Source of the DNA: a virus | Taxonomy: Duplodnaviria > Heunggongvirae > Uroviricota > Caudoviricetes | Reading direction: 5' to 3' (one strand) | IMG/VR virus record: IMGVR_UViG_3300010280_000022 | DNA: 27,380 nt | Shown: positions 1 to 25,500 of the stretch, piece by piece | Layout: each line of letters opens with the position of its first letter | Numbering within the stretch: position 1 is the stretch's first letter | Notes under the pieces: model-generated | What the model was told of the DNA's origin: nothing | Seen by the model: the letters and a program-made list of their open reading frames with translations, nothing else | Database searches by the model: none | Made by a program: the position numbers and the translations under genes

Positions 1-2420
1 CATATATTATTTGCCGACCTATGTACATACGTATTTACTATCGGCTTAGATGAAGATGAACCCTTAGCTCTCGAACCATCGATAAGACAGTCAGACACTG
101 ACATAAATCCTGAAACAAGGTTGTTACTCACATCCCAATCTATGGCCATTTTGTCAAAATAAACACTGCCAAGCATATATGTTTTTCCACCAGAATAGCC
201 TACAAACCTACGTAATACACCACCATAATGCTTGATGTAACTCCTAGTCATTCCTGATGTGATATTCATATATACAATATCCATATTGCACTCAATTCCG
301 TAAAGGCAAGATGCATATTCTGATATGTGTCCAACATAACATACAACTTTACATCCAGTTGATTCAGATGGAGTCAATTTAATTACAGGAATATCTCTTG
401 TAGATGCATCATGATATGAAATTGCCAACTCAAATCTTGCGTCTTTACCATTAAAAGTGCTACCAGTAAAATCTATCAACGACGGCATTTTAAAGTCACG
501 CAAAGGTGATGGCTGTGTTTTAAAGTTATTTTTAAATGATAAAATATTGAGTGTTACCTCAGAAGGCCAGTATATATTCGTCTGTACAATTATATTCTTC
601 GGAAGATGTAAAGTGCGCGGCTGGACAGGGTTCCCGGACGCGATAACATTGTCTGAACGACACAAAATCATATCCACCAAACCGGATGAACCCTCTGGAA
701 TACGAACGGATCCCCCACGGACTATGAAATCACCTTTATGTTCACCGTAATCCGTACGTACTCCAAACGGCCCTATGTGAGAATTGATGATCTGTGTTGC
801 CTCGTCGAACGCCCCAGTACCAACCAAGACGCCGCCAGGTATCCGACAATTATCAACAAGAATCTTTGAGCACCCATAGTGCATGTGAAAGCTATCAATA
901 TTACTGTCTCTCACAACTACATCCCTGCAATAGTTGCCGTCAATAGACCTCCACCCCTTACCCACTTCGCAGCCGATAAAAGTATGTTTAAGGGTGTACT
1001 CCATAGCTACGGTATAACGAGAATTATTATCCGTCTGCGTAATACCCGCACTCGTTAATCTCCAGTTAACTCCGTAGGTGGTAGAGCTACCAAAAATATT
1101 AGAATCTGTAGCTGTCATCCCCATGTCATTAAAGTAAACAACCTCAACATCAACTAAAGAACGTTGGATATCAAAAGCATAGCGTGAAAATTGACCAGTG
1201 AAACGCGGCAATACAATTTTATTACGCTTAGTTGGTAGCTTAAATAACGTACAAGTTACGGGGTCGTTGTAAGTATTTTTAAGACTGTAAGCCAATTCCC
1301 CTGGCTTAGTCATAAAGTTCACTTCACCTTTATATCTTGGGCTGAATACACCACCAATCAACCTATAGAGATCAACCTCTGTTGGACTTATTATTTTGAC
1401 GAGCGAATTACCCCACCCTGCTAAATCCTCAACACAAGAAAAAACTGAGGTTAACTCGTTCAATGGGTATGTTGATATATTAACTTCCTTTATATAATTA
1501 TCATCATCCCTTTCATCTTTATACACAACCTTTCCGTTTGTTAAGTGGAAAGTACAATTACTCAAATCAAAATCACCATATAGATATGTTTCTTTATCTA
1601 TGGTGAAAGTTAGTGGCGCGCTTGAGTATATTTTTATTGGTGTATTTTTATACTTATAAAATATAGCATTAAGCTGATCACTATTCCGCTCACCGTCTAG
1701 TGCGCTTATATCATATATATATAATCTGTTTTCTAATCCACCAATTAACTTATACCCATCAGGTTTAGCTAATTCAATTAGAACGTCTGAGGCAGATCCA
1801 GATGGTGGTAATACGACAAATGGATTACCATCATTATCAAAAGCAACCATCTTGTTTGCTCTTTCAATAGCATCAGGTAAGGAAGGTATTGATTCAGGAA
1901 CACGAAGAGTTTTGCTTAGATTGCTACCAGCAAGCGTATCCACGTAATTTTTTGTTGCCGCATCCTGCGGAAATCTGGGATCTCTCAGGTTACGAATATA
2001 ATTGTTCAAAGCATCATAATAATTAGCAATAAATGATGGTTTACGCAGAGCCAACCTGAACCAACTTCTAACCTGCTGTATCAGCATCGTCAGTTTATCG
2101 AATGCGTCTTCATGCACCTCAGCGAAGAACTTACCCTGGTTGCGCAGATCGGTATCCTGCGTAACCGGTAGCTCTCTTGATATAGAAATCTGATAACCGT
2201 TAACCAACGCCTTCGACAGAATTACATTGCCGCCGTTATACCCTCCCGCACCAGTGACTATGTAATCAGTATCAAGAATCAGCTCTGTGATGTTCTCGTT
2301 CAGGTCAACAACCTGCACTACTAAATCAGATTTCTGGAAAATCCTGAAGGTATAAGGGAATGTCGTTGTAACACCGTTACCGGTGTATTCGTTGTGGTCA
2401 ACTTCGGTTGAGACCGTCAT
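1..2420 (-). CDS. Tailspike / tail fibre protein, 3'-truncated by window edge (at least 806 aa); T7 gp17-like N-terminal anchor domain plus AT-rich divergent C-terminal region
   Basis: Minus frame open from ATG at 2420 (GGAG 8 nt upstream) to position 1; absent from ORF track because no stop lies in the window. N-terminus MTVSTEVDHNEYTGNGVTTTFPYTFRIF..LVVQVVDL..DTDYIV fits the conserved podovirus tail-fibre N-terminal pattern. Confidence 0.8.
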   Translation of the reverse strand, partial: MTVSTEVDHNEYTGNGVTTTFPYTFRIFQKSDLVVQVVDLNENITELILDTDYIVTGAGGYNGGNVILSKALVNGYQISISRELPVTQDTDLRNQGKFFAEVHEDAFDKLTMLIQQVRSWFRLALRKPSFIANYYDALNNYIRNLRDPRFPQDAATKNYVDTLAGSNLSKTLRVPESIPSLPDAIERANKMVAFDNDGNPFVVLPPSGSASDVLIELAKPDGYKLIGGLENRLYIYDISALDGERNSDQLNAIFYKYKNTPIKIYSSAPLTFTIDKETYLYGDFDLSNCTFHLTNGKVVYKDERDDDNYIKEVNISTYPLNELTSVFSCVEDLAGWGNSLVKIISPTEVDLYRLIGGVFSPRYKGEVNFMTKPGELAYSLKNTYNDPVTCTLFKLPTKRNKIVLPRFTGQFSRYAFDIQRSLVDVEVVYFNDMGMTATDSNIFGSSTTYGVNWRLTSAGITQTDNNSRYTVAMEYTLKHTFIGCEVGKGWRSIDGNYCRDVVVRDSNIDSFHMHYGCSKILVDNCRIPGGVLVGTGAFDEATQIINSHIGPFGVRTDYGEHKGDFIVRGGSVRIPEGSSGLVDMILCRSDNVIASGNPVQPRTLHLPKNIIVQTNIYWPSEVTLNILSFKNNFKTQPSPLRDFKMPSLIDFTGSTFNGKDARFELAISYHDASTRDIPVIKLTPSESTGCKVVCYVGHISEYASCLYGIECNMDIVYMNITSGMTRSYIKHYGGVLRRFVGYSGGKTYMLGSVYFDKMAIDWDVSNNLVSGFMSVSDCLIDGSRAKGSSSSKPIVNTYVHRSANNI

Positions 2421-3188: not shown

Positions 3189-3884
3189 ATGACAGCTACA
3201 AAAAGCACGTCCATTTTTTCTTTCGAATCCCAAGCCGATATACGGGTAATCGTCATTAATGGTGAGCCATGGTTTATCGCTTCAGATGTTTGTCGGGCTA
3301 TAGGCATAGCAAACCATCGAGATGCTGTTCGAAAACTTGATGATGATGAGAAGGGCGTCGCTTCAACCGACACCCCTGGCGGTGAGCAAGAATCGATCAT
3401 CATCTCCGAGTCAGGCCTCTACACACTGATCCTCCGCTGCCGCGATGCGGTGACACCAGGCACTATCCCATACCGCTTTCGTAAATGGGTTACAGGTGAG
3501 GTTCTTCCTCAGATCCGCCGCACCGGAAGTTACATTAAAAACTCGCTCACGCAGGAAGAACGCATAAAGATGGTTGCCGACCAGGTAGCCAACGCCACGG
3601 CGTCAGCAGTGATGCAGGCGATGAAGATAGAGAACAAAACCTACAGTGCCCCACTGAAGCCCGGCTACCGCAGCCTGATTCATTCGCCGTCTGGTGTTCT
3701 CGGCCTGACGGAGAACTCACTGCTGATGAATTTGCTGAACCAGTTACAGGAAGACGGGCACGATGTATCGGGCGCGGCGGCGGAACTGACCACCATGTTC
3801 TGCTACATCGTCGGTGTGAGCAAATGCCTGCGTGATATCCAGACTCACGCGGAGTACATCAACGACAAAGCAGGATTCTTCTGA
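3189..3884 (+). CDS. Bro-N family phage antirepressor (231 aa)
   Basis: N-terminal IRVIVINGEPWFIASDVCRAIGI...LDDDEKGV is the Bro-N/antirepressor signature; AAAAGG upstream of ATG; long structured leader. Confidence 0.8.
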   Translation: MTATKSTSIFSFESQADIRVIVINGEPWFIASDVCRAIGIANHRDAVRKLDDDEKGVASTDTPGGEQESIIISESGLYTLILRCRDAVTPGTIPYRFRKWVTGEVLPQIRRTGSYIKNSLTQEERIKMVADQVANATASAVMQAMKIENKTYSAPLKPGYRSLIHSPSGVLGLTENSLLMNLLNQLQEDGHDVSGAAAELTTMFCYIVGVSKCLRDIQTHAEYINDKAGFF

Positions 3885-4102: not shown

Positions 4103-4642
4103 GTGTTAAGTGAAGAAATGCAATTTGCCATGGCTGTGGCTCAAATCGTAAGTGCAGTCGCGGTTTCGCTTGGCTTGTTCATAGCTATCGCTACTATTAT
4201 TTATAATGTAAATACAGCGAGAAAAGTACACACTTCAGTATTCCTTGGTGAAAGCAGGTTTGATGTAGATTATAAGAAAGGCCTATCTACTATGCGCCGC
4301 ATTCACGAATCGAACAAATCATTCCGCTCTTATATGTATCCAAGCAATGGGCAGGCTGATCTTACGGATGAAGAAAAGATAGAGAAGAGAGAAATAATTT
4401 ACTGTCTAGGTTTCTACGAACGCATGGCTGTGAGCGTGAAGCGGAAAACTTATGATGAGACCATGATTAAGGAAGTATTTTACAGCTCCGTTGTAAATAA
4501 CTATCAGATTGCGCTACCTCTTATACAAGCTATTAGAGAAAAAGAAAACATAAACACATATTTTAAAGAATATGAATGGTTGGCCACACGATGGAAGGAT
4601 TGTCCATTGAAAGATAAATCCCCGTGGTACAAGTTTTGGTAA
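4103..4642 (+). CDS. AT-rich inner-membrane protein (179 aa; one N-terminal TM helix); candidate superinfection-exclusion/defence moron
   Basis: GTG start with GGAG 6 nt upstream (alternative ATG at 4118); hydrophobic segment FAMAVAQIVSAVAVSLGLFIAIATIIY; AT-rich codon usage unlike the flanking structural genes; strong terminator follows. Confidence 0.7.
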   Translation: MLSEEMQFAMAVAQIVSAVAVSLGLFIAIATIIYNVNTARKVHTSVFLGESRFDVDYKKGLSTMRRIHESNKSFRSYMYPSNGQADLTDEEKIEKREIIYCLGFYERMAVSVKRKTYDETMIKEVFYSSVVNNYQIALPLIQAIREKENINTYFKEYEWLATRWKDCPLKDKSPWYKFW

Positions 4643-4933: not shown

Positions 4934-5494
4934 CTACATTGATATATGATTCATAAAGTAGCTTAAAGATTTACTTCCCAGAAAAGAAATTTCTTTTCCT
5001 GGATATGTCGCAATAATTGAGCATGACTTATCCCCGTTAGAGGTAACAAATCCTGAATAACCTACTTGTTCTTTACCATTTTGTTGCTTGGCTAAAAAGT
5101 AGAGGTAGCTTATCTTTTTGCCCTCTGGGTAAAACTCTGCCAAACCAGTATCGGTGATTGAATATTTTATTCTCCCGCCTTGAGTAACGTTTTCCATCTC
5201 AAGTTTAGCTATGTCTTTTCTGTTGTATTCAGCATTGATTTTCCTTTCGAAATCAATGTTGTTTTCAAATGAGTAGGAAGCAACAGTCTGAATAGATGGG
5301 AACACGTTTATCTGGATGCCTCCACAGTCGGCACAGGTATAAAGGTATGAATCAGATGGAATCCCCATAAAAGAAAACTGAGTTACCTTAAATTTATCGC
5401 TATCTCCAAAGTATTGAAGTTCGCATTTAACATTTTGCCCTGCAAAAGAAAATGCAGACATCAATATTGAAACAAAAAATATAATTGCCTTCAT
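4934..5494 (-). CDS. AT-rich secreted/periplasmic protein (186 aa), last gene of the late operon; function unknown
   Basis: Signal peptide MKAIIFFVSILMSAFSFA; four Cys; ATG 3 nt after the stop of the upstream 850-aa gene; composition much more AT-rich than the core genes. Confidence 0.7.
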   Translation of the reverse strand: MKAIIFFVSILMSAFSFAGQNVKCELQYFGDSDKFKVTQFSFMGIPSDSYLYTCADCGGIQINVFPSIQTVASYSFENNIDFERKINAEYNRKDIAKLEMENVTQGGRIKYSITDTGLAEFYPEGKKISYLYFLAKQQNGKEQVGYSGFVTSNGDKSCSIIATYPGKEISFLGSKSLSYFMNHISM

Positions 5495-5496
5495 TA

Positions 5497-8049
5497 TTAT
5501 TTACCTAGCATGAACTGCGATGGTGGGATCAGAAAGCCGTTACCCTGCTCACGCTCAACACGGCGCTGATAACGCTCAAGAGAGCCTGGGTCAAGGGCAT
5601 CTTGTATCCGGTTCAATATTAAACCATTCATCGCCGTACGAAGCCAGAACACGTTGAGGAATGGCGTATTGTCAAGTGCCGTGCGATACCAGTCACCCAA
5701 ATCTGCATCCCCTCTCGTGGTCTGCTGGAGCAGCGTGATAATGCTGTCAGCGTTCGATGCTGCTGGCCCCATTAGCGACGTAACCGGCCCGGCCCCCATG
5801 CGGTTGACCTCGCCAAACATGAAGTCACCCAAGATGCCAAGACCGCCCCCCTGAGATGCGGCTGCGAGAAACGTCTTGGCATCTGCCGGGCGTGGTGTTT
5901 GCCCTTTCAGCATGAGTTTTGACTGCATGGAGATATAACCAAACATAGTCGCCCAGACAAAGAGGTTTGCAGCACCAAGGAAAGCCCCCTTCCCGTTACG
6001 TAGCAGCGCATTCGTCAGCGATCCGGTTTTCGACTCACCAAGCCCAGCAGGAATATAACCACGCCCGAATACTTCGCGTCCTAGTACGTTCTGCATGAAG
6101 CTTGCAGTGAACGATTTGTACTGACCAGCGAATCGTATTGCTTCCCCAGCCACCGTTCCTGGCACCGTGCCCATCTTCATAAACGCCTGCGTGCGATCGC
6201 CAGGCTCTGACATGGCGATATTCAGGCGGTCAAGGATGTAGCCGCGCAACTGCCCTTCCAATTGATCGCGTGCGTCAGCGATAGCGCGCTGCGTTGGTTT
6301 GATCCCCTTACTCTCTACATAACCGGCAATCACTTCGTCAGGCACGCCGCGGATGCCGCTGGTCGTCATGAACTTACGACCTTCGCTATCGGCCATGTCC
6401 ATGTTGCGAAAAATTTCCCACTCACGTTCGCCAATACCGTGCAGATCCAGCACGCGTCGCAGGTCTTCCGGTAGCCGCGCATGAGACTGGTCAGCATTCT
6501 TTGCAAGCCAGTTGGTTATCATCATGGCGTTGCTGTTGCGACCGCTCTCGGTCCAGAAGTTCATGAGGTTGTACTTAAAGAAAAGCTGCTGCGCGCGACC
6601 AAGCTTTCCATTCAGCGTGTCATCACCAGATATGCGCCGGATGATTTCCTGCGTCATGGAGTCGGAATAAACTCCGATAGAGGAAAGGATCTCTTTCTGC
6701 TCCGCGCTGTTGTAACGCGTGAAGCGGCCTCTCATAGCACCAAGCAACGCCTGCATAAAATTCTGCCCTTGGTAGCGCATCTCGGTAGCGGCGATAGGCA
6801 CGTCGTTAAACGATGAGATTACCGCGCCACCAAGTTGGCTCATACGCAACCAGCCGCGTACAGCCGCCGACGCATTGGCCCAGCCTACGCTGCCAGGAAT
6901 ATTTAGCGAGCCGTCAACCTGCGGCATTACGGTACGGTTAATGCGACGCACCTTCGTCATGTAGTCAGCCAACGCTGCCGGTCTTCCGGATTTGCTGATA
7001 TCTTCAGCAATGGCGTCCGTCAGGTACTTAAACATGTTCTGTGGGTTAGTGCCCAGTACGCGCATCATGCCCGTTGTGCGGGCAGCGCTGTTTAAGCCAC
7101 CAAACAGCGCTTCTCGCAGGCTGCCGGTGCCGAATTGCTGGTTGTACTCGTGCCAAGAGATACCATCTTTGAAGTGCAAAATTCGCTCTTGGCTGGCGCG
7201 TTTAGCTGCGTTCGCCGATCCCTTAAAGCCATTCATCCAATCGGGCTTTTCAGATGTAAGATGCACGCCGGAAGCCAGCCCGTTATAAATGTTACGCATG
7301 AACTGCTCGCGGTCAGCCACGCCGTCAAAAGTGCGCTCATCAAGGCGCGGGAGAATAGCATTTCGCCATGCATCATAACCTGCGGCGCGGATCTTCATGA
7401 TGTCGTGTGACTGGCGCACTATATAGCCCGGCTCTTTGCGTATCCATGCCCCGGCGCGGTTCTCATCAATGCGCGCAGTTTCCTGCCATTTCATGATGAT
7501 TTGTGCAGCGCTTACGGATTGCTTTGTCATACCGTCAGTTGACTGCCCGCGCCCTATGCGCCACATTGCATCGGCAATTTCCCGGTCATTGCTGCCGCTG
7601 GCGATGAATTGCACCAGCCCGGCACGGTCAAAATCGTAGTTGATACCGGAATGATACTTGCCGCGCAGTTGCGCCACCTCCGAAGATACCGACCGGCGGG
7701 CGCCGGTACGCGCATCGTTGCGGCCAACCAGCATTGCTTCAAGCCCGATATCCGGGCGGTCTTTCCAGATAGTACGAAGCTCTCTAAGTCGTTGTGCGGC
7801 AATACGGGCGTTGATTGCCTTATTGCGAGCCTCAATCTGTTTTGCCAGCATATCGGCATTGCTCAGTTCTTCCGCTGCGCGCATCGCGGCCTCTTCCAGA
7901 GACAGCGCCTCATTGGTCGCCAGAATTCGCCTAGTGGTGTCGTTCATGTCACGCACCAGCGACTCCATCTCATCGGAAGAAAGCTCGCGACCAGCGGCAG
8001 CATTTACACTGCGCTCGCACTGCGTCAAAAATTCGTTTGCTGCCATCAC
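5497..8049 (-). CDS. Internal virion/ejection protein (850 aa; T7 gp16-like position)
   Basis: Long ORF overlapping start/stop with neighbours, in the block between tail-tube genes and tailspike. Confidence 0.7.
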   Translation of the reverse strand: MMAANEFLTQCERSVNAAAGRELSSDEMESLVRDMNDTTRRILATNEALSLEEAAMRAAEELSNADMLAKQIEARNKAINARIAAQRLRELRTIWKDRPDIGLEAMLVGRNDARTGARRSVSSEVAQLRGKYHSGINYDFDRAGLVQFIASGSNDREIADAMWRIGRGQSTDGMTKQSVSAAQIIMKWQETARIDENRAGAWIRKEPGYIVRQSHDIMKIRAAGYDAWRNAILPRLDERTFDGVADREQFMRNIYNGLASGVHLTSEKPDWMNGFKGSANAAKRASQERILHFKDGISWHEYNQQFGTGSLREALFGGLNSAARTTGMMRVLGTNPQNMFKYLTDAIAEDISKSGRPAALADYMTKVRRINRTVMPQVDGSLNIPGSVGWANASAAVRGWLRMSQLGGAVISSFNDVPIAATEMRYQGQNFMQALLGAMRGRFTRYNSAEQKEILSSIGVYSDSMTQEIIRRISGDDTLNGKLGRAQQLFFKYNLMNFWTESGRNSNAMMITNWLAKNADQSHARLPEDLRRVLDLHGIGEREWEIFRNMDMADSEGRKFMTTSGIRGVPDEVIAGYVESKGIKPTQRAIADARDQLEGQLRGYILDRLNIAMSEPGDRTQAFMKMGTVPGTVAGEAIRFAGQYKSFTASFMQNVLGREVFGRGYIPAGLGESKTGSLTNALLRNGKGAFLGAANLFVWATMFGYISMQSKLMLKGQTPRPADAKTFLAAASQGGGLGILGDFMFGEVNRMGAGPVTSLMGPAASNADSIITLLQQTTRGDADLGDWYRTALDNTPFLNVFWLRTAMNGLILNRIQDALDPGSLERYQRRVEREQGNGFLIPPSQFMLGK

Positions 8050-19392: not shown

Positions 19393-19685
19393 TCCTGTTC
19401 ACTGGCCTCTTTGGCCATCTTCAAATACTGTTCAGGGCAATGCGCCATAACGCGCTGAAACAGTTCCAGCGCCAGATTGCGTTGCCCCTCATTAAATGCC
19501 ATTGCCATAGCGTCCATCGGTGAGATAGCGGAAAACACACGGCCTTTCTCCAGCACCGACCAGACAACGCGACGCCCCTGTTCACTGCTCATGACAAAGC
19601 GAATGTCATCAATTTCACGCTGCGCCATGTCACGTTGCTTACGGGCGTTTTCTTCTTTCAGTTGATCGTCTTCGTAATCTGTCAT
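19389..19685 (-). CDS. Hypothetical protein (98 aa) between portal and scaffold
   Basis: ATGA-type overlaps with both neighbours suggest translational coupling. Confidence 0.55.
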   Translation of the reverse strand: MTDYEDDQLKEENARKQRDMAQREIDDIRFVMSSEQGRRVVWSVLEKGRVFSAISPMDAMAMAFNEGQRNLALELFQRVMAHCPEQYLKMAKEASEQE

Positions 19686-21361
19686 TGTGATTGCCCACCC
19701 TGACCACTAACTGCATTCGCCATAGCTGACAAAACACTCGGATCCGAAGTTTTAGCTTCACTTAGCGTCTTGGCACCCTGTGCCGCCGCCATCCCCATCG
19801 CCATCATTTGTTGCTGCTGTTGTTGCTGTGCCCGTTGCTGGCGAGCCTGCTCAACCTGTTCCTGCGGAACAATGACGGTTGGAGACACTCCGGACATATC
19901 AGCGAATGCATCGATCGCCTGATCAACGTTGAGTTTGTCGAGAGCTTCTGGTTTCGCTTGCGCAAGTTGACCAATGAAGTTAACCGTGGACGCCAGACTG
20001 GACAGGCCGATAGACTTCTGCGCCTGAGCCATGACGGAAATGTATTCGACCTTCAGGGGCATGCCTTCCATCGCGTCAGGCGGTGGCGGCAGCATGTTTT
20101 TACGCACCATCATCGAGAAAGCGCGGTCAATGAGAGGATTAAGACATTCGTCGTTCAGACGCTCCAGAACCGGCCCCAACATCAGAAGTTTTTCTTCTTT
20201 CATTTCGATCACCGCTTCAACAGGCATCGAGCGGGTATTGATGTTCTGCAACATCATGAACAGATCGACAAAGTAGGCGCTGTTAATGATTTGACGAGTG
20301 TCCTGAATGTCTGCCACCAGATCTGCTGTACTGGGGTTAACCAGATAAGCAGGCCTGAAGCCATCCTGACCAGTAATCTGATCGATATACGTGATGTCGC
20401 CAGGAAGAAGGGAGGCGCGCTGATTCTTGAGGGAAGTCGGAGCAACCATCGGCGGATTGGTGGCTTTATCAATCAACTGCGACTTGCGCTTCTGGAGAAG
20501 CTGCAATGCCTTAACAGGTCCAAGCGCCAGCATACCCGGGCATGATGATCCATAAACATCTTCGCCGTTAACTTCCCAGCGCGGAGCCATAATTGGAAAC
20601 TCATCAAATCCGGACTCACGCAACAACTTGTCGTTATCGCCACCAACCTCGTAATAAACCGATTTGAATGGCTTGTTCTTGCTATCCAGCTTCGAAGTAT
20701 CGCGGTCAATGTTCGGGTAAACCGAATGCATCACTTCAATCCACTTCTCGTAGGTGCCGCTTTCCCACATGCTTTTTACGGATTCGCTGACGTTATTTAG
20801 CCCGAACTCCTGAACAAGCTGACGAACAGTCATAGAGAACTTGCGAAAACAGGTGTCCACACTGCCACGAGGTGAGTTAGCCAGGTAGTAACTGCCTATC
20901 GGGAATGGCATTGTGCGAATGATGTCCTCGTCATCCTCCAGCACTGCCATTGCACCAGTGCTGTATGTGCCGAGGCTTCCGTATAACTGCGGCAGCGACT
21001 GATAGAGATTCGACTTATTGAACATATCGTTCATGCGGTTCTGCACCGCCTCAAGCCACAACTTAACAGGGCCATAATCCATCATTTCAGGATCTGGCGT
21101 AGCCAGGCGAAACCACGGACGCGCGGGGCTTGTGATGCCTGACATCATGCCACTAGCGAGAGTGCGCGCCGCCATAGTCCCGGTCGAATCAATAATGCGT
21201 GTATTGCGTCGATCGTTACGGTTGACCTCAGAAGTCAGAAAGCGGGAACCACGCGGGTTGATGTAATCACTCAACTCGCGCCAGTGCGGCTCGAACGACT
21301 GACGCTCGCTTTCAAGTTGTGCGAACTGTTTGTTCAATCGCTCTTTAGTTGTTTCCGCCAT
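19682..21361 (-). CDS. Portal (head-to-tail connector) protein, T7 gp8-like (559 aa)
   Basis: Q-rich stretch followed by MMAMGMAAAQGA near the C-terminus and an ERL...P N-terminal pattern recall T7 gp8; GGAG 8 nt upstream. Confidence 0.8.
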   Translation of the reverse strand: MAETTKERLNKQFAQLESERQSFEPHWRELSDYINPRGSRFLTSEVNRNDRRNTRIIDSTGTMAARTLASGMMSGITSPARPWFRLATPDPEMMDYGPVKLWLEAVQNRMNDMFNKSNLYQSLPQLYGSLGTYSTGAMAVLEDDEDIIRTMPFPIGSYYLANSPRGSVDTCFRKFSMTVRQLVQEFGLNNVSESVKSMWESGTYEKWIEVMHSVYPNIDRDTSKLDSKNKPFKSVYYEVGGDNDKLLRESGFDEFPIMAPRWEVNGEDVYGSSCPGMLALGPVKALQLLQKRKSQLIDKATNPPMVAPTSLKNQRASLLPGDITYIDQITGQDGFRPAYLVNPSTADLVADIQDTRQIINSAYFVDLFMMLQNINTRSMPVEAVIEMKEEKLLMLGPVLERLNDECLNPLIDRAFSMMVRKNMLPPPPDAMEGMPLKVEYISVMAQAQKSIGLSSLASTVNFIGQLAQAKPEALDKLNVDQAIDAFADMSGVSPTVIVPQEQVEQARQQRAQQQQQQQMMAMGMAAAQGAKTLSEAKTSDPSVLSAMANAVSGQGGQSQ

Positions 21362-21375
21362 TTCAATGACTCCGG

Positions 21376-21582
21376 TTACTGACCAAGTAGCGTTTTACCG
21401 CTGGTATTAGCGGTTGATGTGTCGCCCTGAGAACCGGTAAGCAGCGTAGAACTACGACCAGCAGCAGCGCGACGGCGACGAGTTTCTTCGTCGCGGGCAT
21501 CAACAACGGCGGCATCCTGCTCCTGTGGTGCTGCCTGAACTTCTGGTGTTGCAGGCACTGATGGTGAGCTACCCATGCACAT
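21376..21582 (-). CDS. Small Ala/Gln/Arg-rich protein (68 aa) upstream of portal
   Basis: Same RBS context GGAGTCATTGA(T/A)ATG as portal; the overlapping 21363..21602 frame looks non-coding. Confidence 0.5.
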   Translation of the reverse strand: MCMGSSPSVPATPEVQAAPQEQDAAVVDARDEETRRRRAAAGRSSTLLTGSQGDTSTANTSGKTLLGQ

Positions 21583-21672
21583 ATCAATGACTCCGTACGC
21601 AATTAAATTATTACCAATTTAACCACATATGATTTATTTATCGTAGACAGTTGACATTTAACGCACGAATTA

Positions 21673-21687
21673 TTACCTTTCAGGTAA
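21673..21687 (+). promoter_or_regulatory. Dyad motif site B: TTACC-TTTCA-GGTAA (perfect inverted repeat)
   Basis: Perfect palindrome 17 bp downstream of a TTGACA hexamer (21651-21656); heads the tRNA/moron insertion. Confidence 0.5.
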
Positions 21688-22009
21688 CCAAAGAGTTCAT
21701 TCCGGTTACTAACCTGACTGGCTTGTCGTTAAATTGAACAGGTGGAGTGAGCTTTTATTTTGATCAGTACGGCGTATGGCACATGCGCCGATAGCGGTCT
21801 GGATACGTTTAAGGGGCACCCTCCCTTGCTCGGGCAAACGAACCAGGTAGCCGGAATGTGCAAGTCGAGCGGTTTTATTCCGCGCACGGGGATTCACCAT
21901 CCCGGCGATTCGGTGTGACGCCTCGGAAGAGACGAGGGTACAACGATGAGAGCATTTATGGAGCCGCGACAAAGTGTGGTGCCTTAACAGGCTAAGTGCT
22001 CTCAGCGTT

Positions 22010-22086
22010 GTGGCATTAGCTCAGTCGGACAGAGCAACCGCCTTCTAAGCGGTTGGTCGCAGGTTCGAATCCTGCATGCCACGCCA
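22010..22086 (+). tRNA. tRNA-Arg (anticodon UCU, reads AGA), phage-type
   Basis: Acceptor stem GTGGCAT/ATGCCAC, D-arm AGCTCAGTCGGACAGAGC, anticodon loop CTTCTAA, T-arm GCAGGTTCGAATCCTGC, discriminator G plus CCA. Confidence 0.85.
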
Positions 22087-22249
22087 GAATCACGCCTAAG
22101 GACCGTGATGCCAGAAGTTCCAGGTGCTTGGCGGTGATGGTTTCCCTTGAAGAACTATCACCGCCCTTTTTACAGCAGGACGCCATTGCGATGACTTCAT
22201 GCTGTAAACCAGTACAGCCACGGAAGGCATAACTCATTGCTTCCAGTTC

Positions 22250-22273
22250 GCCCGGTTCGCCGGGCATTTTTTT
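22250..22273 (+). terminator. Rho-independent terminator downstream of the tRNA
   Basis: GCCCGG-TTCG-CCGGGC followed by ATTTTTTTG. Confidence 0.7.
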
Positions 22274-22289
22274 GCTTGATGACCGCAAA

Positions 22290-22304
22290 TTACCTTAAAG
22301 GTAT
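22290..22304 (+). promoter_or_regulatory. Dyad motif site D: TTACC-TTAAA-GGTAT, abutting TATAAT and the moron ATG
   Basis: ATTACCTTAAAGGTATAATcATG; right arm overlaps an AAGG Shine-Dalgarno-like element 7 nt from ATG at 22309. Confidence 0.45.
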
Positions 22305-22308
22305 AATC

Positions 22309-23127
22309 ATGAAAAACTTCAAGGTAATTAGCATGTTTGAATCGTTTAAAGAGCTGTTTTTATCTACTGCCAATACTGCCGTGAATAGAGCCAAAAACCC
22401 TGTGCTTGGTGCTTTTGTTATGTCCTGGTGCGCCTTCAACTGGAAATCAATTCTTTATCTATTTTTTAGCAAATCAAACATAATAGATAAAATTTCATAT
22501 ATCTCAGATAACAGCACATGGAAAACTGTTATGTTTTATCCATGCTTATCTGTAATTGCTATCTGCTGCCTATTACCATGGGTAAACAATATCATTAACG
22601 TATGGCAAGCAAAGCCTCTTGATAATAATGACTCAATCGAAAATCACCTGAAGGCAAGAAAAATCCAGCGTGAAACAAGACTGCAGAGGTTATTGGCTAA
22701 AAAAGATGTTACATACGACAAAGTTAAGACTGGCGCGGAAAAAGACATCCAAGAGATGAAAGAAGAGATTATTCGATCAAAGAATAGTATGGGGGAATTG
22801 ACTGCCGAGTTGAAAGCTAAAGATGACGAATTGAGATCCGCCAGTGCTCAGTTAGCAGCTCTAAATCATTCATTAAAAGAGATATCGGAAACTCTTGGAA
22901 GAATGAATGAGGCATATAAGACCCTCCAAAATGATTTCGACGAATACAAACTCAAATACCCTGAAAAATCTCAAATAAAAAGCCTTGCACTTGGCAACGG
23001 CCAAACAATTAGCAACTTTTTGGAGCAACACAACTTATCCGGATTAAAATCTGGTAAGCCAAACGTTTTTAATAACTTTGGTGTTCTATCTGGATTATCA
23101 GGTTTCGAGGATAAAAATAAAGACTAA
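22309..23127 (+). CDS. AT-rich moron: membrane-anchored protein with C-terminal coiled coil (272 aa); candidate abortive-infection/superinfection-exclusion factor
   Basis: Two hydrophobic segments (PVLGAFVMSWCAFNW..., VMFYPCLSVIAICCLLPWV) then a long charged heptad-like region; opposite strand and markedly more AT-rich than the flanking terL and portal genes. Confidence 0.7.
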   Translation: MKNFKVISMFESFKELFLSTANTAVNRAKNPVLGAFVMSWCAFNWKSILYLFFSKSNIIDKISYISDNSTWKTVMFYPCLSVIAICCLLPWVNNIINVWQAKPLDNNDSIENHLKARKIQRETRLQRLLAKKDVTYDKVKTGAEKDIQEMKEEIIRSKNSMGELTAELKAKDDELRSASAQLAALNHSLKEISETLGRMNEAYKTLQNDFDEYKLKYPEKSQIKSLALGNGQTISNFLEQHNLSGLKSGKPNVFNNFGVLSGLSGFEDKNKD

Positions 23128-24599
23128 GCATATGGATCGTACTCGGTAAGCGCCTTGCCTTGCTGGTTCTGCTGCCCGGGAAGTCGCAGGCGCTTTGACA
23201 CCGGGAAAGCAAACGTCAGCAGTAGCGCATCGCCTTTACCAGGCGAACGCCCAAGCCGCTCCTTGATATCTTCCTTCGGTTCGATAACGATTTTACCGTC
23301 CACTCGAACTTTGTACTCTGCCGCCGACAGATCGTCCGCTGTTTCCTGGTCATCCAGCATCCCGCCCAGCCTCAGCCATGTCTTGCATGAGTTGAACATC
23401 TCCCCACGCTTGTTGAGCATCTGCGGGTCAGTAGACGCGCCACCGAACGGAACAAGTTGCCATGTGCGCCCCCAACCGTCACCGATTGACTTCAGACCGG
23501 TACCGTAACCAAAGTCGATGAACACTGCGTCAGCCTGATACAGGTCTTCAAAGTCAGCGATACGCTTCGCCATAATCAGATCGTCGGTAGTCTTGTTGCC
23601 AGTCCACAGCACCTTACTGTGTAGCCCCTGCCGCAGGTATATCACCGCGTCATCAACGCCTGAATATGCCGGGTCAACACCGATTATCACCGGAGCATGC
23701 GCCACCTGCGCAGCGGTTACCACCCGTTTCATTGCCTCATCAGTAAGACCGGTAGGGATAAACTGCAATTCAGATGCATCAGGGAATATGCCGCGCACAC
23801 GGATTTTAACGAAGTCGCTGTCTTCCCCGTAGTCATCAACCCATTTCTGCAACTGCTGTTTGTTAGTGCCTTCCACCGTCCGGCTGTCAATCTGCGCAGT
23901 TTTCCAGCGGTGTTTATATTTGCGGAAACATTCGCGGAAACGCCCGGTGTTACGTGTAGGGTTTCCGAACGCCACCCAGATAATCTCAGTGTCTTCGTCC
24001 GTAAGCGCACCCTCAGCAACTTCCCACACCAGATCCGCAATGTTCGACGCTTCATCGAATACCACGATGATGCGTTTGCGCTCGTTGTGTAGTCCGGCGA
24101 ATGCCTCAGTGTTGTGCTCAGACCAGGGGATTGCGTCAGCTCGCCACCGCTTGTCGTGCCCAGGATCATTGCTGTACATCGCGGTAGCGGTACAGGTAAA
24201 CCAGTCTTTCGTGATAGCAAGGTTCGACCACTTGATAATTTCCGGCCAGGTCTTCGTTCGTAGCTGGTTGTCGGTGTTGGCAGTCACCACGACCTTACAA
24301 TCCTCGCAAGTGGACATGCCCCAGTTGATCAGCATTGAGATGAATGCTGATTTACCAATACCGTGACCCGAAGCGCGTGCCAGCATAAGCGGCTGATAGC
24401 GCGTCTCTGGATTCTGCAGGTGATCACGTATCTCTCGGAACGCATCGGCCTGCCACTGACGTGGGCCGGTAGCATGTGCCAGTTCAGTCCCCTCTTCCCC
24501 CCACGGGAACGCATAGAGGGCATAGCCAAGCGGATCGTGAGTGAACCCTGCAATATCCTCGATCAACTGCTCTTCAGGAGATAACGCTGTATCTGTCAC
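23124..24599 (-). CDS. terL: Terminase large subunit (491 aa)
   Basis: Walker A-like ASGHGIGKS, Walker B-like IIVVFDEAS, C-terminal nuclease-type acidic motifs; GTG start overlapping the terS stop. Confidence 0.85.
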   Translation of the reverse strand: MTDTALSPEEQLIEDIAGFTHDPLGYALYAFPWGEEGTELAHATGPRQWQADAFREIRDHLQNPETRYQPLMLARASGHGIGKSAFISMLINWGMSTCEDCKVVVTANTDNQLRTKTWPEIIKWSNLAITKDWFTCTATAMYSNDPGHDKRWRADAIPWSEHNTEAFAGLHNERKRIIVVFDEASNIADLVWEVAEGALTDEDTEIIWVAFGNPTRNTGRFRECFRKYKHRWKTAQIDSRTVEGTNKQQLQKWVDDYGEDSDFVKIRVRGIFPDASELQFIPTGLTDEAMKRVVTAAQVAHAPVIIGVDPAYSGVDDAVIYLRQGLHSKVLWTGNKTTDDLIMAKRIADFEDLYQADAVFIDFGYGTGLKSIGDGWGRTWQLVPFGGASTDPQMLNKRGEMFNSCKTWLRLGGMLDDQETADDLSAAEYKVRVDGKIVIEPKEDIKERLGRSPGKGDALLLTFAFPVSKRLRLPGQQNQQGKALTEYDPYA

Positions 24600-25192
24600 T
24601 GATTACCATCCTGACGTTCTTTGAGTCGCTTCCTGGCTGCTGCTATGCGATCAGCAATTGTCACATTCACATTAACATCCAGACGTTCTTTGAACGCGTT
24701 GACATCAACATGCTTACCAATCAGCTCAAGGTTCTTCACCTTGTCAGGCCATTTAATTTTTTTGAGGATTGTCTCTATCGAATCCTCGTTCATGTTCATG
24801 ATGGTCGATGACAGATCAAAGCCACTAAGCGTAGTGCGCCAGATTTTCGGCCACTCACGGATTGGTTTAAGGCTCCCATCGTCGTTGAGGATGTCGATCA
24901 CGTCCATCTGGTCGATCTCCACCAGGCGCATGAGAACGTAATCAGCACTGACGCGCATTCGTTTGTTGCGCTCCTCCATCAACTCGGCAATCCGTTTTTG
25001 AATGCGTTCATCGCGCATCATGACACTGGCTTTAACTGCCGCTGTATTTGGGGAGAATCCTGCGTTAATCGCTGCCTGAGTCTGGTTTTCAGGCGTTTTG
25101 ATGTATGACTGGCAATAAGCCTCCTGCATTGCTGTGAGCGGCTTAAATTGCGTTGATTTGCGTTTATAGGTTTTAGGTTCAGCAGGCATCAT
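24596..25192 (-). CDS. terS: Terminase small subunit (198 aa)
   Basis: ...LELIGKHVDVNAFKE... is a terminase small-subunit type signature; start moved to ATG at 25192 because the first 26 residues of the ORF-track call are a Thr/Ile-rich read-through. Confidence 0.65.
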   Translation of the reverse strand: MMPAEPKTYKRKSTQFKPLTAMQEAYCQSYIKTPENQTQAAINAGFSPNTAAVKASVMMRDERIQKRIAELMEERNKRMRVSADYVLMRLVEIDQMDVIDILNDDGSLKPIREWPKIWRTTLSGFDLSSTIMNMNEDSIETILKKIKWPDKVKNLELIGKHVDVNAFKERLDVNVNVTIADRIAAARKRLKERQDGNQ

Positions 25193-25201
25193 AACCACCG
25201 T

Positions 25202-25231
25202 GGTAATAGTTACCGTTGTGGTAATAGTACC
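25202..25231 (-). repeat. Tandem palindromic repeats GGTAATAGT(T)ACC x2 in the terS leader
   Basis: Copies at 25202-25214 and 25220-25231, 10-40 nt upstream of the terS start. Confidence 0.5.
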
Positions 25232-25232
25232 A

Positions 25233-25261
25233 TGCAAAATAAAGCCGCCATAGTTGGCGGC
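25233..25261 (-). terminator. Rho-independent terminator between the nin-like genes and terS
   Basis: Minus-strand GCCGCCA-ACTA-TGGCGGC followed by TTTATTTTG. Confidence 0.6.
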
Positions 25262-25266
25262 AGTAT

Positions 25267-25500
25267 TCAAAGTCCATCAAATCCATCGTAAAAACTCTCG
25301 TCAAGATACCCTTCCCATTTACCGCGAATGAAAATTACATCCTCGCCGCAAGGGTGCTGACTGTCGATAACTATATCCCTCCTGGCGCAACCATACTTAT
25401 GCATGAGAAATTTAACCTCTTTCGGAAAATTTGCTGAGTTATCTCTCATATCTTCAAGGTCGTAGCGTATTTTTGGCATAACACCTTCGTGACATGTCAC
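25267..25500 (-). CDS. Hypothetical protein (77 aa)
   Basis: ORF in a compact minus-strand array with overlapping stop/start codons. Confidence 0.5.
   Translation of the reverse strand: MTCHEGVMPKIRYDLEDMRDNSANFPKEVKFLMHKYGCARRDIVIDSQHPCGEDVIFIRGKWEGYLDESFYDGFDGL

Follow-up and report, generated by a model that had tools for sequence, protein, structure and literature searches.

A predicted inner-membrane coiled-coil protein encoded by a moron in the terL/tRNA-Arg cargo hotspot of an epsilon15/phiV10-like Escherichia coli prophage

The DNA considered here, referred to below as the window, is the whole 27,380-nucleotide (nt) stretch of the Caudoviricetes record IMGVR_UViG_3300010280_000022 in IMG/VR, and its sequence identifies the host element as an epsilon15/phiV10-like (Uetakevirus) Escherichia coli prophage. 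Beside the gene for the large terminase subunit (terL), the window carries a plus-strand cargo gene, which a preliminary description had called a moron. Our comparative analysis lends this view good support: the gene has the features of an autonomous accessory cassette in the sense of Hendrix and colleagues and occupies a slot between terL and a tRNA-Arg gene, in which related prophages carry other content or none. The whole mobile cassette, comprising promoter, 5′ untranslated region and coding sequence, spans 22274..23127 (+), as delimited by the breakpoint with phage phiV10. Its product is predicted to be a 264-amino acid (aa) inner-membrane protein with a two-helix hairpin, and the role that we favor for it, if still tentatively, is defense by abortive infection or exclusion of other phages.

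The limits of the slot emerge from comparison with phiV10. The window is 98.7% identical to this phage over 21583..22273; homology stops at 22273, and phiV10 has PhiV10p03 in the slot instead. To survey the slot more broadly, we considered 80 IMG/VR contigs with a terL at least 98% identical to that of the window and extracted the interval between the terL stop codon and the backbone in 78 of them. It measures 129-1290 nt and holds six kinds of content: a 118-aa PF13876 protein (34/78 contigs), a 103-aa protein of unknown kind (21/78), the PHROG 4780-type family gene that is the subject of this study (12/78), two further small open reading frames (ORFs) of unknown kind (4/78 and 2/78), or an empty interval of 129 nt (5/78). 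Cargo orientation is identical in all slot states. The phiV10 slot gene likewise belongs to PF13876, and that of the Klebsiella phage ST512-KPC3phi13.3 to PF11195 (Tad2-like); the former is known as the Acb4 family of anti-CBASS sponges and the latter as Tad2 (bioRxiv 10.1101/2024.12.30.630793; 10.1101/2025.07.12.664507). Four kinds of small slot ORFs have no Pfam match (103, 110, and 115 aa, plus the 168-aa SPN9TCW_003 from Salmonella) and are candidates for more counter-defense or defense genes. To judge from these comparisons, the slot is a genuine hotspot, and its identifiable occupants are counter-defense genes. The exact locus of the window is found in 37 of 5,426 complete E. coli genomes; in E. 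coli O22:H8 strain 154, the locus is 99.6% identical to the window and the prophage adjoins guaA.

This patchy occurrence, with the gene in only 12 of 78 close relatives and other content at the same position in phiV10, is one hallmark of a moron, and a base composition unlike that of the surrounding genome is another. The GC content of the cassette (22274..23123) is 0.364 and that of the gene 0.365, compared with 0.497 for the window; along the gene, values of 0.36-0.39 contrast with 0.50-0.55 in terL and the portal gene, and GC content at third codon positions is 0.37 in the cargo gene versus 0.53-0.61 in the terminase subunit and portal genes. The preliminary description had thus rightly noted that the gene is far more AT-rich than its neighbors and lies on the opposite strand, since terL, the adjacent 68-aa gene and the portal gene are all on the minus strand. 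A further hallmark, an own promoter and terminator, is seen in part: a promoter-like element precedes the gene in 14 of 14 close alleles, and no terminator follows it. The terL stop codon (TAG, 23124-23126, minus strand) overlaps that of the cargo gene (TAA, 23125-23127, plus strand) in a convergent arrangement that leaves no place for a terminator behind the cargo gene, and a promoter/terminator scan of the region detected none 3′ of it.

The promoter-like element is of the sigma-70 type and spans 22279..22307 (+), with a -35 box ATGACC (22279-22284), a 17-nt spacer and a -10 box TATAAT (22302-22307). Matching 10 of 12 positions, it is the best promoter match within 21500..23400. In the sequences upstream of 14 close alleles, which come from Uetakevirus, lambdoid, and other podovirus contexts, the pattern (A/G)TGACN-17-TAnnAT was found without exception; the distance from its end to the conserved ATG is 25-27 nt (29 nt in EC.W1-9), and an A-rich 5′ leader follows it. 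The predicted promoter and leader appear to travel with the gene, and a sigma-70 promoter of its own probably drives its transcription, independently of the late operon and antisense to it. A palindrome, TACC-N5-GGTA (22291..22303), extends from the promoter spacer into the beginning of the -10 box. Twelve of the 14 alleles have perfect arms, whereas the five nucleotides between them vary, a pattern that suggests a candidate operator for some regulator.

The position of the promoter also bears on the start codon. In the ORF list of the window, the gene lies in an ORF at 22237..23127 (+), and translation from ATG 22309 gives the 272-aa product of the preliminary description, which corresponds to RefSeq entry WP_000787773.1 ("hypothetical protein"). 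The ORF itself is real, but its start is probably further downstream. All 21 aligned homologues start at the equivalent of M9 of the 272-aa form, and the PHROG 4780 profile alignment begins at residue 9. The upstream ATG is seen in this allele alone (tcATGaaaaac, compared with tcAGAaaaaac in most others among the 14 close alleles); with its first base 2 nt past the end of the predicted -10 box, ATG 22309 probably coincides with or precedes the predicted start of transcription. Because of these three observations, we consider ATG 22333 as the probable real start, which yields a 264-aa protein (most likely coding sequence 22333..23127, including TAA); the upstream ATG looks like an annotation artifact.

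Several observations indicate that the ORF did not arise by chance. At 36.5% GC a stop codon is expected every ~15 codons, and the probability of 264 open codons is, by simple arithmetic, about 1e-8; in addition, a word-indexed search retrieved 177 relatives, and dN/dS ratios range from 0.04 to 0.48. The 177 relatives are all from Enterobacteriaceae and are named "hypothetical" or, at most, generic coiled-coil/DUF3450 proteins. An exhaustive profile search of 1.84 billion representatives extended the family to 295 clusters (counted at 50% identity) at E<=1e-10; the named members sampled come from Klebsiella, Cronobacter, Pantoea, Proteus, Providencia, Serratia, and other Enterobacterales, and weak tblastn matches were obtained to Vibrio inoviruses and one Vibrio replicon. 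The preliminary description had been unable to assign a family. This holds for curated functional libraries, but the protein matches PHROG 4780, a family of unknown function, over its full length (E=3.2e-137, residues 9-272 against profile positions 1-267 of 275). Pfam and NCBIfam contain no family for it and gave sub-threshold coiled-coil matches only. Similarly, Pfam and PADLOC scans of 73 diverse relatives returned coiled-coil noise and left the N-terminal module unmatched, and no extra domain was recognized in the longer relatives (369-514 aa). No paper mentioning WP_000787773 or phrog_4780 was found in the literature searched. Neither the family motifs nor the accession occur in the portion of the DefensePredictor paper's supplements that was covered; these supplements label transmembrane and coiled-coil proteins among those validated. 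A paper on the neaT "moron" that names phiV10 proved to have a different subject, an unrelated acyltransferase in a P2-like prophage.

Hydropathy analysis confirms two hydrophobic segments near the N-terminus, as stated in the preliminary description, with 19-residue Kyte-Doolittle maxima of 1.2 (around residues 31-54 of the 272-aa form) and 2.15 (around residues 74-92); the first is marginal and the second strong. In the 264-aa form, to which the following numbering refers, these correspond to H1 (aa 23-45; 22399-22467) and TM2 (aa 65-92; 22525-22608). The structure prediction proposed in the same description was carried out with AlphaFold. A shallow alignment gave a poor model, with a predicted local distance difference test score (pLDDT) of 65, and a BFVD search with this model returned no match. 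With 73 diverse relatives, the pLDDT rose to 84, and the model shows one unbroken helix over residues 63-208, which opens with the second hydrophobic segment and accounts for the long coiled-coil-like region that had been noted from the sequence. It is preceded by short helices at 2-19, 23-35, 37-45, and 50-60; confidence is high over the N-terminal module (pLDDT 76-98) and falls below 55 after residue 210. The second membrane helix thus probably runs on into a stalk of ~115 residues, which would form a coiled coil upon oligomerization. A basic juxtamembrane helix in the N-terminal module bears the motif RLQRLxAKxDVTYDKVKTGAEKDIQ. Averaged over the 73 relatives, the charge is +1.1 at the N-terminus, -0.7 in the loop between the two helices, and +1.3 and +2.7 in the first 15 and first 33 residues, respectively, after the second hydrophobic helix. 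Under the positive-inside rule, this pattern favors an N-in/C-in topology, in which both termini are most likely cytoplasmic and the 19-residue loop periplasmic. No solved or predicted structural relative was found: a PDB sequence-profile search gave coiled-coil noise only, and fold searches matched unspecific long-helix proteins only.

Conservation divides the protein into two modules. The N-terminal module (aa 1-165; 22333..22827) has a median pairwise identity of 77.5% and a minimum of 59% among 78 family members (residues 1-160), compared with a median of 13.5% for the C-terminal remainder. The N-terminal parts form a single BLAST group, whereas BLAST separates the C-terminal parts into seven or more unconnected groups. 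In the window, the variable C-terminal module (aa 166-264; 22828..23124) comprises the end of the long helix (to ~aa 208) and a low-confidence tail ending in KNKD. Across 73 members, W32 and N36 are invariant down to ~20% identity, and R19, F28, W37, P70, P82, and A122 are nearly so; most of these residues are in or beside the hydrophobic helices. For alleles that have the window's C-terminal type, the dN/dS ratios of the N- and C-terminal parts are 0.04-0.11 and 0.13-0.48, respectively, values that indicate purifying selection on both modules. Thus, the diversity of the family stems from module replacement rather than from decay.

Family members are found in several other locations. Most of the 70 IMG/VR loci with close relatives use the terL/tRNA-Arg slot, with portals 59-100% identical to that of the window, and a member with only ~25% identity (P0165) also resides there. 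In lambdoid prophages, the interval between the replication genes and ninB holds the gene as its sole occupant, on the opposite strand (e.g., in KO-TP1, ST11-VIM1phi8.2, and a K. pneumoniae prophage). Seven to eight lambdoid loci (L004, L039, L051, L052, L053, L054, L060, and L090) retain a 3′-terminal terL fragment of Uetakevirus type, 26-150 codons long, behind the gene, in the native convergent order, which is direct evidence that these copies were exported from the Uetakevirus slot. One of these loci, L039, also encodes, ~3 kb from the family gene (550..1947, minus strand), a 465-aa STAND-type NTPase (AAA_16/nSTAND1) with a weak PADLOC mad8 match, which may be a defense gene of the same accessory region. 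Elsewhere, the family gene lies between scaffold-like and capsid genes, on the same strand, in a podovirus contig (L085), adjoins parA in a phage-plasmid of ~112 kb, and, in Providencia, occurs in a small islet of the chromosome. A Proteus P2-like prophage carries a distant member in its GpA-GpQ interval; this interval is the main site of defense systems in P2, and anti-defense genes are rare in P2 (PMC13586616). In Klebsiella IncF plasmids, a distant member directly follows a DUF1778 antitoxin/GNAT toxin pair. The plasmid copy is intact in pkle02 (5998..6861, 287 aa) and cut to 102 aa beside IS1 in the K. pneumoniae IncFIB plasmid NZ_CP031790.1 (5998..6306); most other plasmid matches span the first 99 residues only, and plasmid copies are often truncated by IS1. 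Apart from the Providencia islet, all copies examined belong to temperate phages, phage-plasmids, or plasmids. In agreement, five tblastn queries from across the superfamily retrieved four to seven records among 50,697 phage genomes, all of them temperate phages or inoviruses, and no family member was detected in virulent phages, with the proviso that very divergent copies may escape tblastn.

Four of the features described above lead us to favor a role in inter-phage conflict on behalf of the resident element: the restriction of the family to temperate phages and plasmids, the probable autonomous expression antisense to the late operon, the member in the GpA-GpQ interval, and the combination of a conserved membrane module with swappable C-termini. 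The conserved module, with its invariant W32 and N36 and near-invariant W37, P70, and P82, would act as the effector of abortive infection or exclusion, and recognition would be set by the interchangeable cytoplasmic C-terminal module. Several results weigh against this proposal. PADLOC-DB v2.0.0 matches only the coiled-coil arms of DndD, LmuB, JetC, and PbeC, at no more than 22 bits; no homology to any known defense or exclusion protein was detected by PADLOC or by hhalign against SieA and SieB; PADLOC scans found no defense partner beside the Proteus, Providencia, and lambdoid members, save for the weak mad8 match; and the commonest slot occupants are the counter-defense families Acb4 (PF13876) and Tad2-like (PF11195).

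By analogy, the closest known protein would be SieB of P22 and lambda, which is expressed in the lysogen and aborts other phages, and a similar logic is proposed here for the cargo protein. The two share small size, prophage origin, and a membrane anchor at the N-terminus, and each is the product of one gene that has a promoter of its own and runs opposite to the neighboring genes. SieB differs in its length of 192 aa, in having no long coiled-coil stalk, and in having an in-frame product, Esc, that starts 24 codons downstream, whereas the two ATGs of the cargo gene are 8 codons apart. We rejected membership in the SieB family (PF14163), as hhalign gave a probability of 0.4% against P22 SieB and neither the protein nor the 73 relatives match PF14163. 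P22 SieA, T4 Imm, and HK97 gp15, the last a described moron, are likewise small membrane proteins from phage accessory genes; among these injection blockers, the sequence comparison was made with SieA, and Imm and gp15 are likened by description only. P22 sieA also resembles the cargo gene in being embedded among virion genes, in running opposite to them, and in having a promoter of its own. However, the hhalign probability for SieA homology is 8% over 27 columns, which is not significant, and injection blockers are expected to face the periplasm, whereas the charge pattern of the cargo family would place the large domain in the cytoplasm.

The content of the slot itself raises the alternative that the protein acts in counter-defense, as an early protein made from its own promoter that neutralizes a host immune system from the membrane, for example one with a membrane-bound effector or sensor, and that is interchangeable with Acb4/Tad2-type sponges. 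The genes of these sponges occupy the identical slot in sister Uetakevirus genomes (an Acb4 family gene in 34 of the 78 near-identical prophages and in phiV10, and a Tad2-like gene in ST512-KPC3phi13.3). They take part in the same accessory-gene turnover, and the orientation and position shared by all cargo in the slot hint at expression at a similar time. The comparison does not extend to the proteins, since Acb4 and Tad2 are soluble, unrelated in sequence, and 118-173 aa long, and a 264-aa membrane protein with a long stalk is unlike small soluble slot occupants of 100-170 aa; moreover, Pfam and fold searches revealed no sequence or fold similarity to any sponge. Their distributions also differ: for sponge families such as Acb4, members have been reported from a wide variety of phages, the virulent SPO1 among them (bioRxiv 10.1101/2024.12.30.630793), whereas the cargo family was not found in virulent phages among the 50,697 genomes. 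The presence of one member in a P2 interval where anti-defense genes are rare (PMC13586616) further argues against this alternative. We regard a counter-defense role as rather unlikely, yet as a serious rival to the defense reading in view of the anti-defense genes that share the slot.

In the broadest version of this idea, the terL/tRNA-Arg slot would be a dedicated immune-evasion locus and the family the first membrane-anchored counter-defense protein. Its two-helix module might dock on a membrane-embedded host immune effector or sensor, and its exchangeable cytoplasmic modules would follow different host systems, much as Acb4 and Tad2 alleles in the slot follow different signals. We consider this broader proposal doubtful. 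A variant would make the family a new single-gene abortive-infection family, in which a modular coiled-coil sensor gates a minimal two-helix membrane pore.

It is rather unlikely that the protein serves host or element physiology, as a lysogenic-conversion or maintenance factor or as an inner-membrane scaffold for envelope, division, stress, or element persistence. Such a role would fit its occurrence on IncF plasmids with a toxin-antitoxin pair, in a phage-plasmid by parA, and in the Providencia islet, and its architecture is that of generic membrane-anchored coiled-coil scaffolds, in line with fold matches to unspecific long helices only. On the other hand, C-terminal module swapping and rapid hotspot turnover are typical of conflict genes rather than of housekeeping-like functions, and no metabolic or envelope gene is consistently linked in the loci examined.

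A helper of the lytic cycle, be it a membrane anchor for replication or packaging, a factor in lysis timing, or a spanin- or holin-like protein, is very unlikely: although the gene lies inside the morphogenesis region (and, in L085, between scaffold-like and capsid genes) and a membrane anchor with a coiled coil recalls i-spanins and phi29 p16.7, the gene is dispensable, given that most near-identical prophages are without it and the slot is empty in five, and in the window it is antisense to the late operon. Rz-type i-spanins are also phage-encoded proteins with an N-terminal anchor followed by a long helical coiled-coil region, but they have one hydrophobic segment instead of two, and the predicted stalk of the cargo protein is cytoplasmic. 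Assignment to the spanin/holin class was rejected, as the neighbors are terL and the tRNA/portal block rather than a lysis cassette, no annotated lysis gene flanks the gene, no overlapping plus-strand ORF of at least 40 aa could encode an o-spanin, and no lysis or virion family is matched in Pfam or PHROG. The remote-homology check proposed in the preliminary description gave the same answer, with no homology to virion or lysis proteins in Pfam, PHROG, PDB, or structure searches.

The surroundings of the slot were annotated from the ORF list of the window and PHROG scans. On the minus strand, they comprise the small terminase subunit gene terS (24596..25270), terL (23124..24599; PHROG 2, E=1e-52), the 68-aa gene (21376..21582), and the portal gene (19682..21361). 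The preliminary description had placed the cargo gene between terL and portal; this is correct on the terL side, but the neighbors on the portal side are a non-coding element, a tRNA-Arg(UCU) gene, and two terminators. The tRNA gene (22010..22086, plus strand; ARAGORN, Rfam tRNA 73 bits) is on the same strand as the cargo gene, 223 nt upstream of ATG 22309. The two terminator-like hairpins (22130-22165 and 22250-22265, plus strand) were detected in an intrinsic-terminator scan at the backbone-side edge of the slot. Both fall within the stretch that is 98.7% identical to phiV10, and they are predicted to close the upstream RNA-gene unit. We also considered whether the tRNA is dedicated to the cargo gene, in which AGA/AGG account for 6 of 8 arginine codons, compared with no AGA in terL, portal, and terS. 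This idea was dropped, as the tRNA belongs to the backbone and several backbone genes also use AGA.

Just upstream of the tRNA gene lies a conserved non-coding core of ~190 nt (21769..21960, plus strand), which features the motifs CGGCGTATGGCACATGCGCCG, GGTAGCCGGAATGTGCAAG, and CACCATCGTGGCGATACGGTGTGACACCTCGGAAGAGACGAGG. Every Uetakevirus-like prophage examined has this core, whether or not it also has the tRNA, and the lambdoid phages mEp460, cdtI, and 2H10 contain it at 83-84% identity; in mEp460, it is located directly downstream of a cI-like repressor gene on the same strand. RNAalifold analysis of 15 sequences predicted 39 base pairs, 11 of them with compensatory changes, and a minimum free energy z-score of -3.6; many G-U pairs are workable on the plus strand only. 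No Rfam match was obtained at E<=1, and the element is a candidate for a novel phage structured RNA. Elsewhere in the window, AT-rich genes encode a DUF4760 protein (4118..4642, plus strand, GC content 0.39) and a 186-aa protein without Pfam or PADLOC match (4934..5494, minus strand, GC content 0.35). Together with a Bro-N domain gene at 3189..3884, they probably represent further accessory cargo.

The family is thus widespread in Enterobacterales mobile elements, yet missing from Pfam, NCBIfam, PADLOC, and the literature searched. Prophage morons encoding small membrane proteins are already a familiar category, and the cargo gene is a reasonable candidate for phage-challenge experiments; one membrane module combined with at least seven C-terminal types offers a ready design for specificity tests by module swapping. 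With four other cargo types still uncharacterized, the slot is also a convenient place for finding more phage-conflict genes. If the defense reading is true, the family would represent a small membrane system that consists of one gene and contains its own modular sensor; if the counter-defense reading is true, it would be a new kind of inhibitor.

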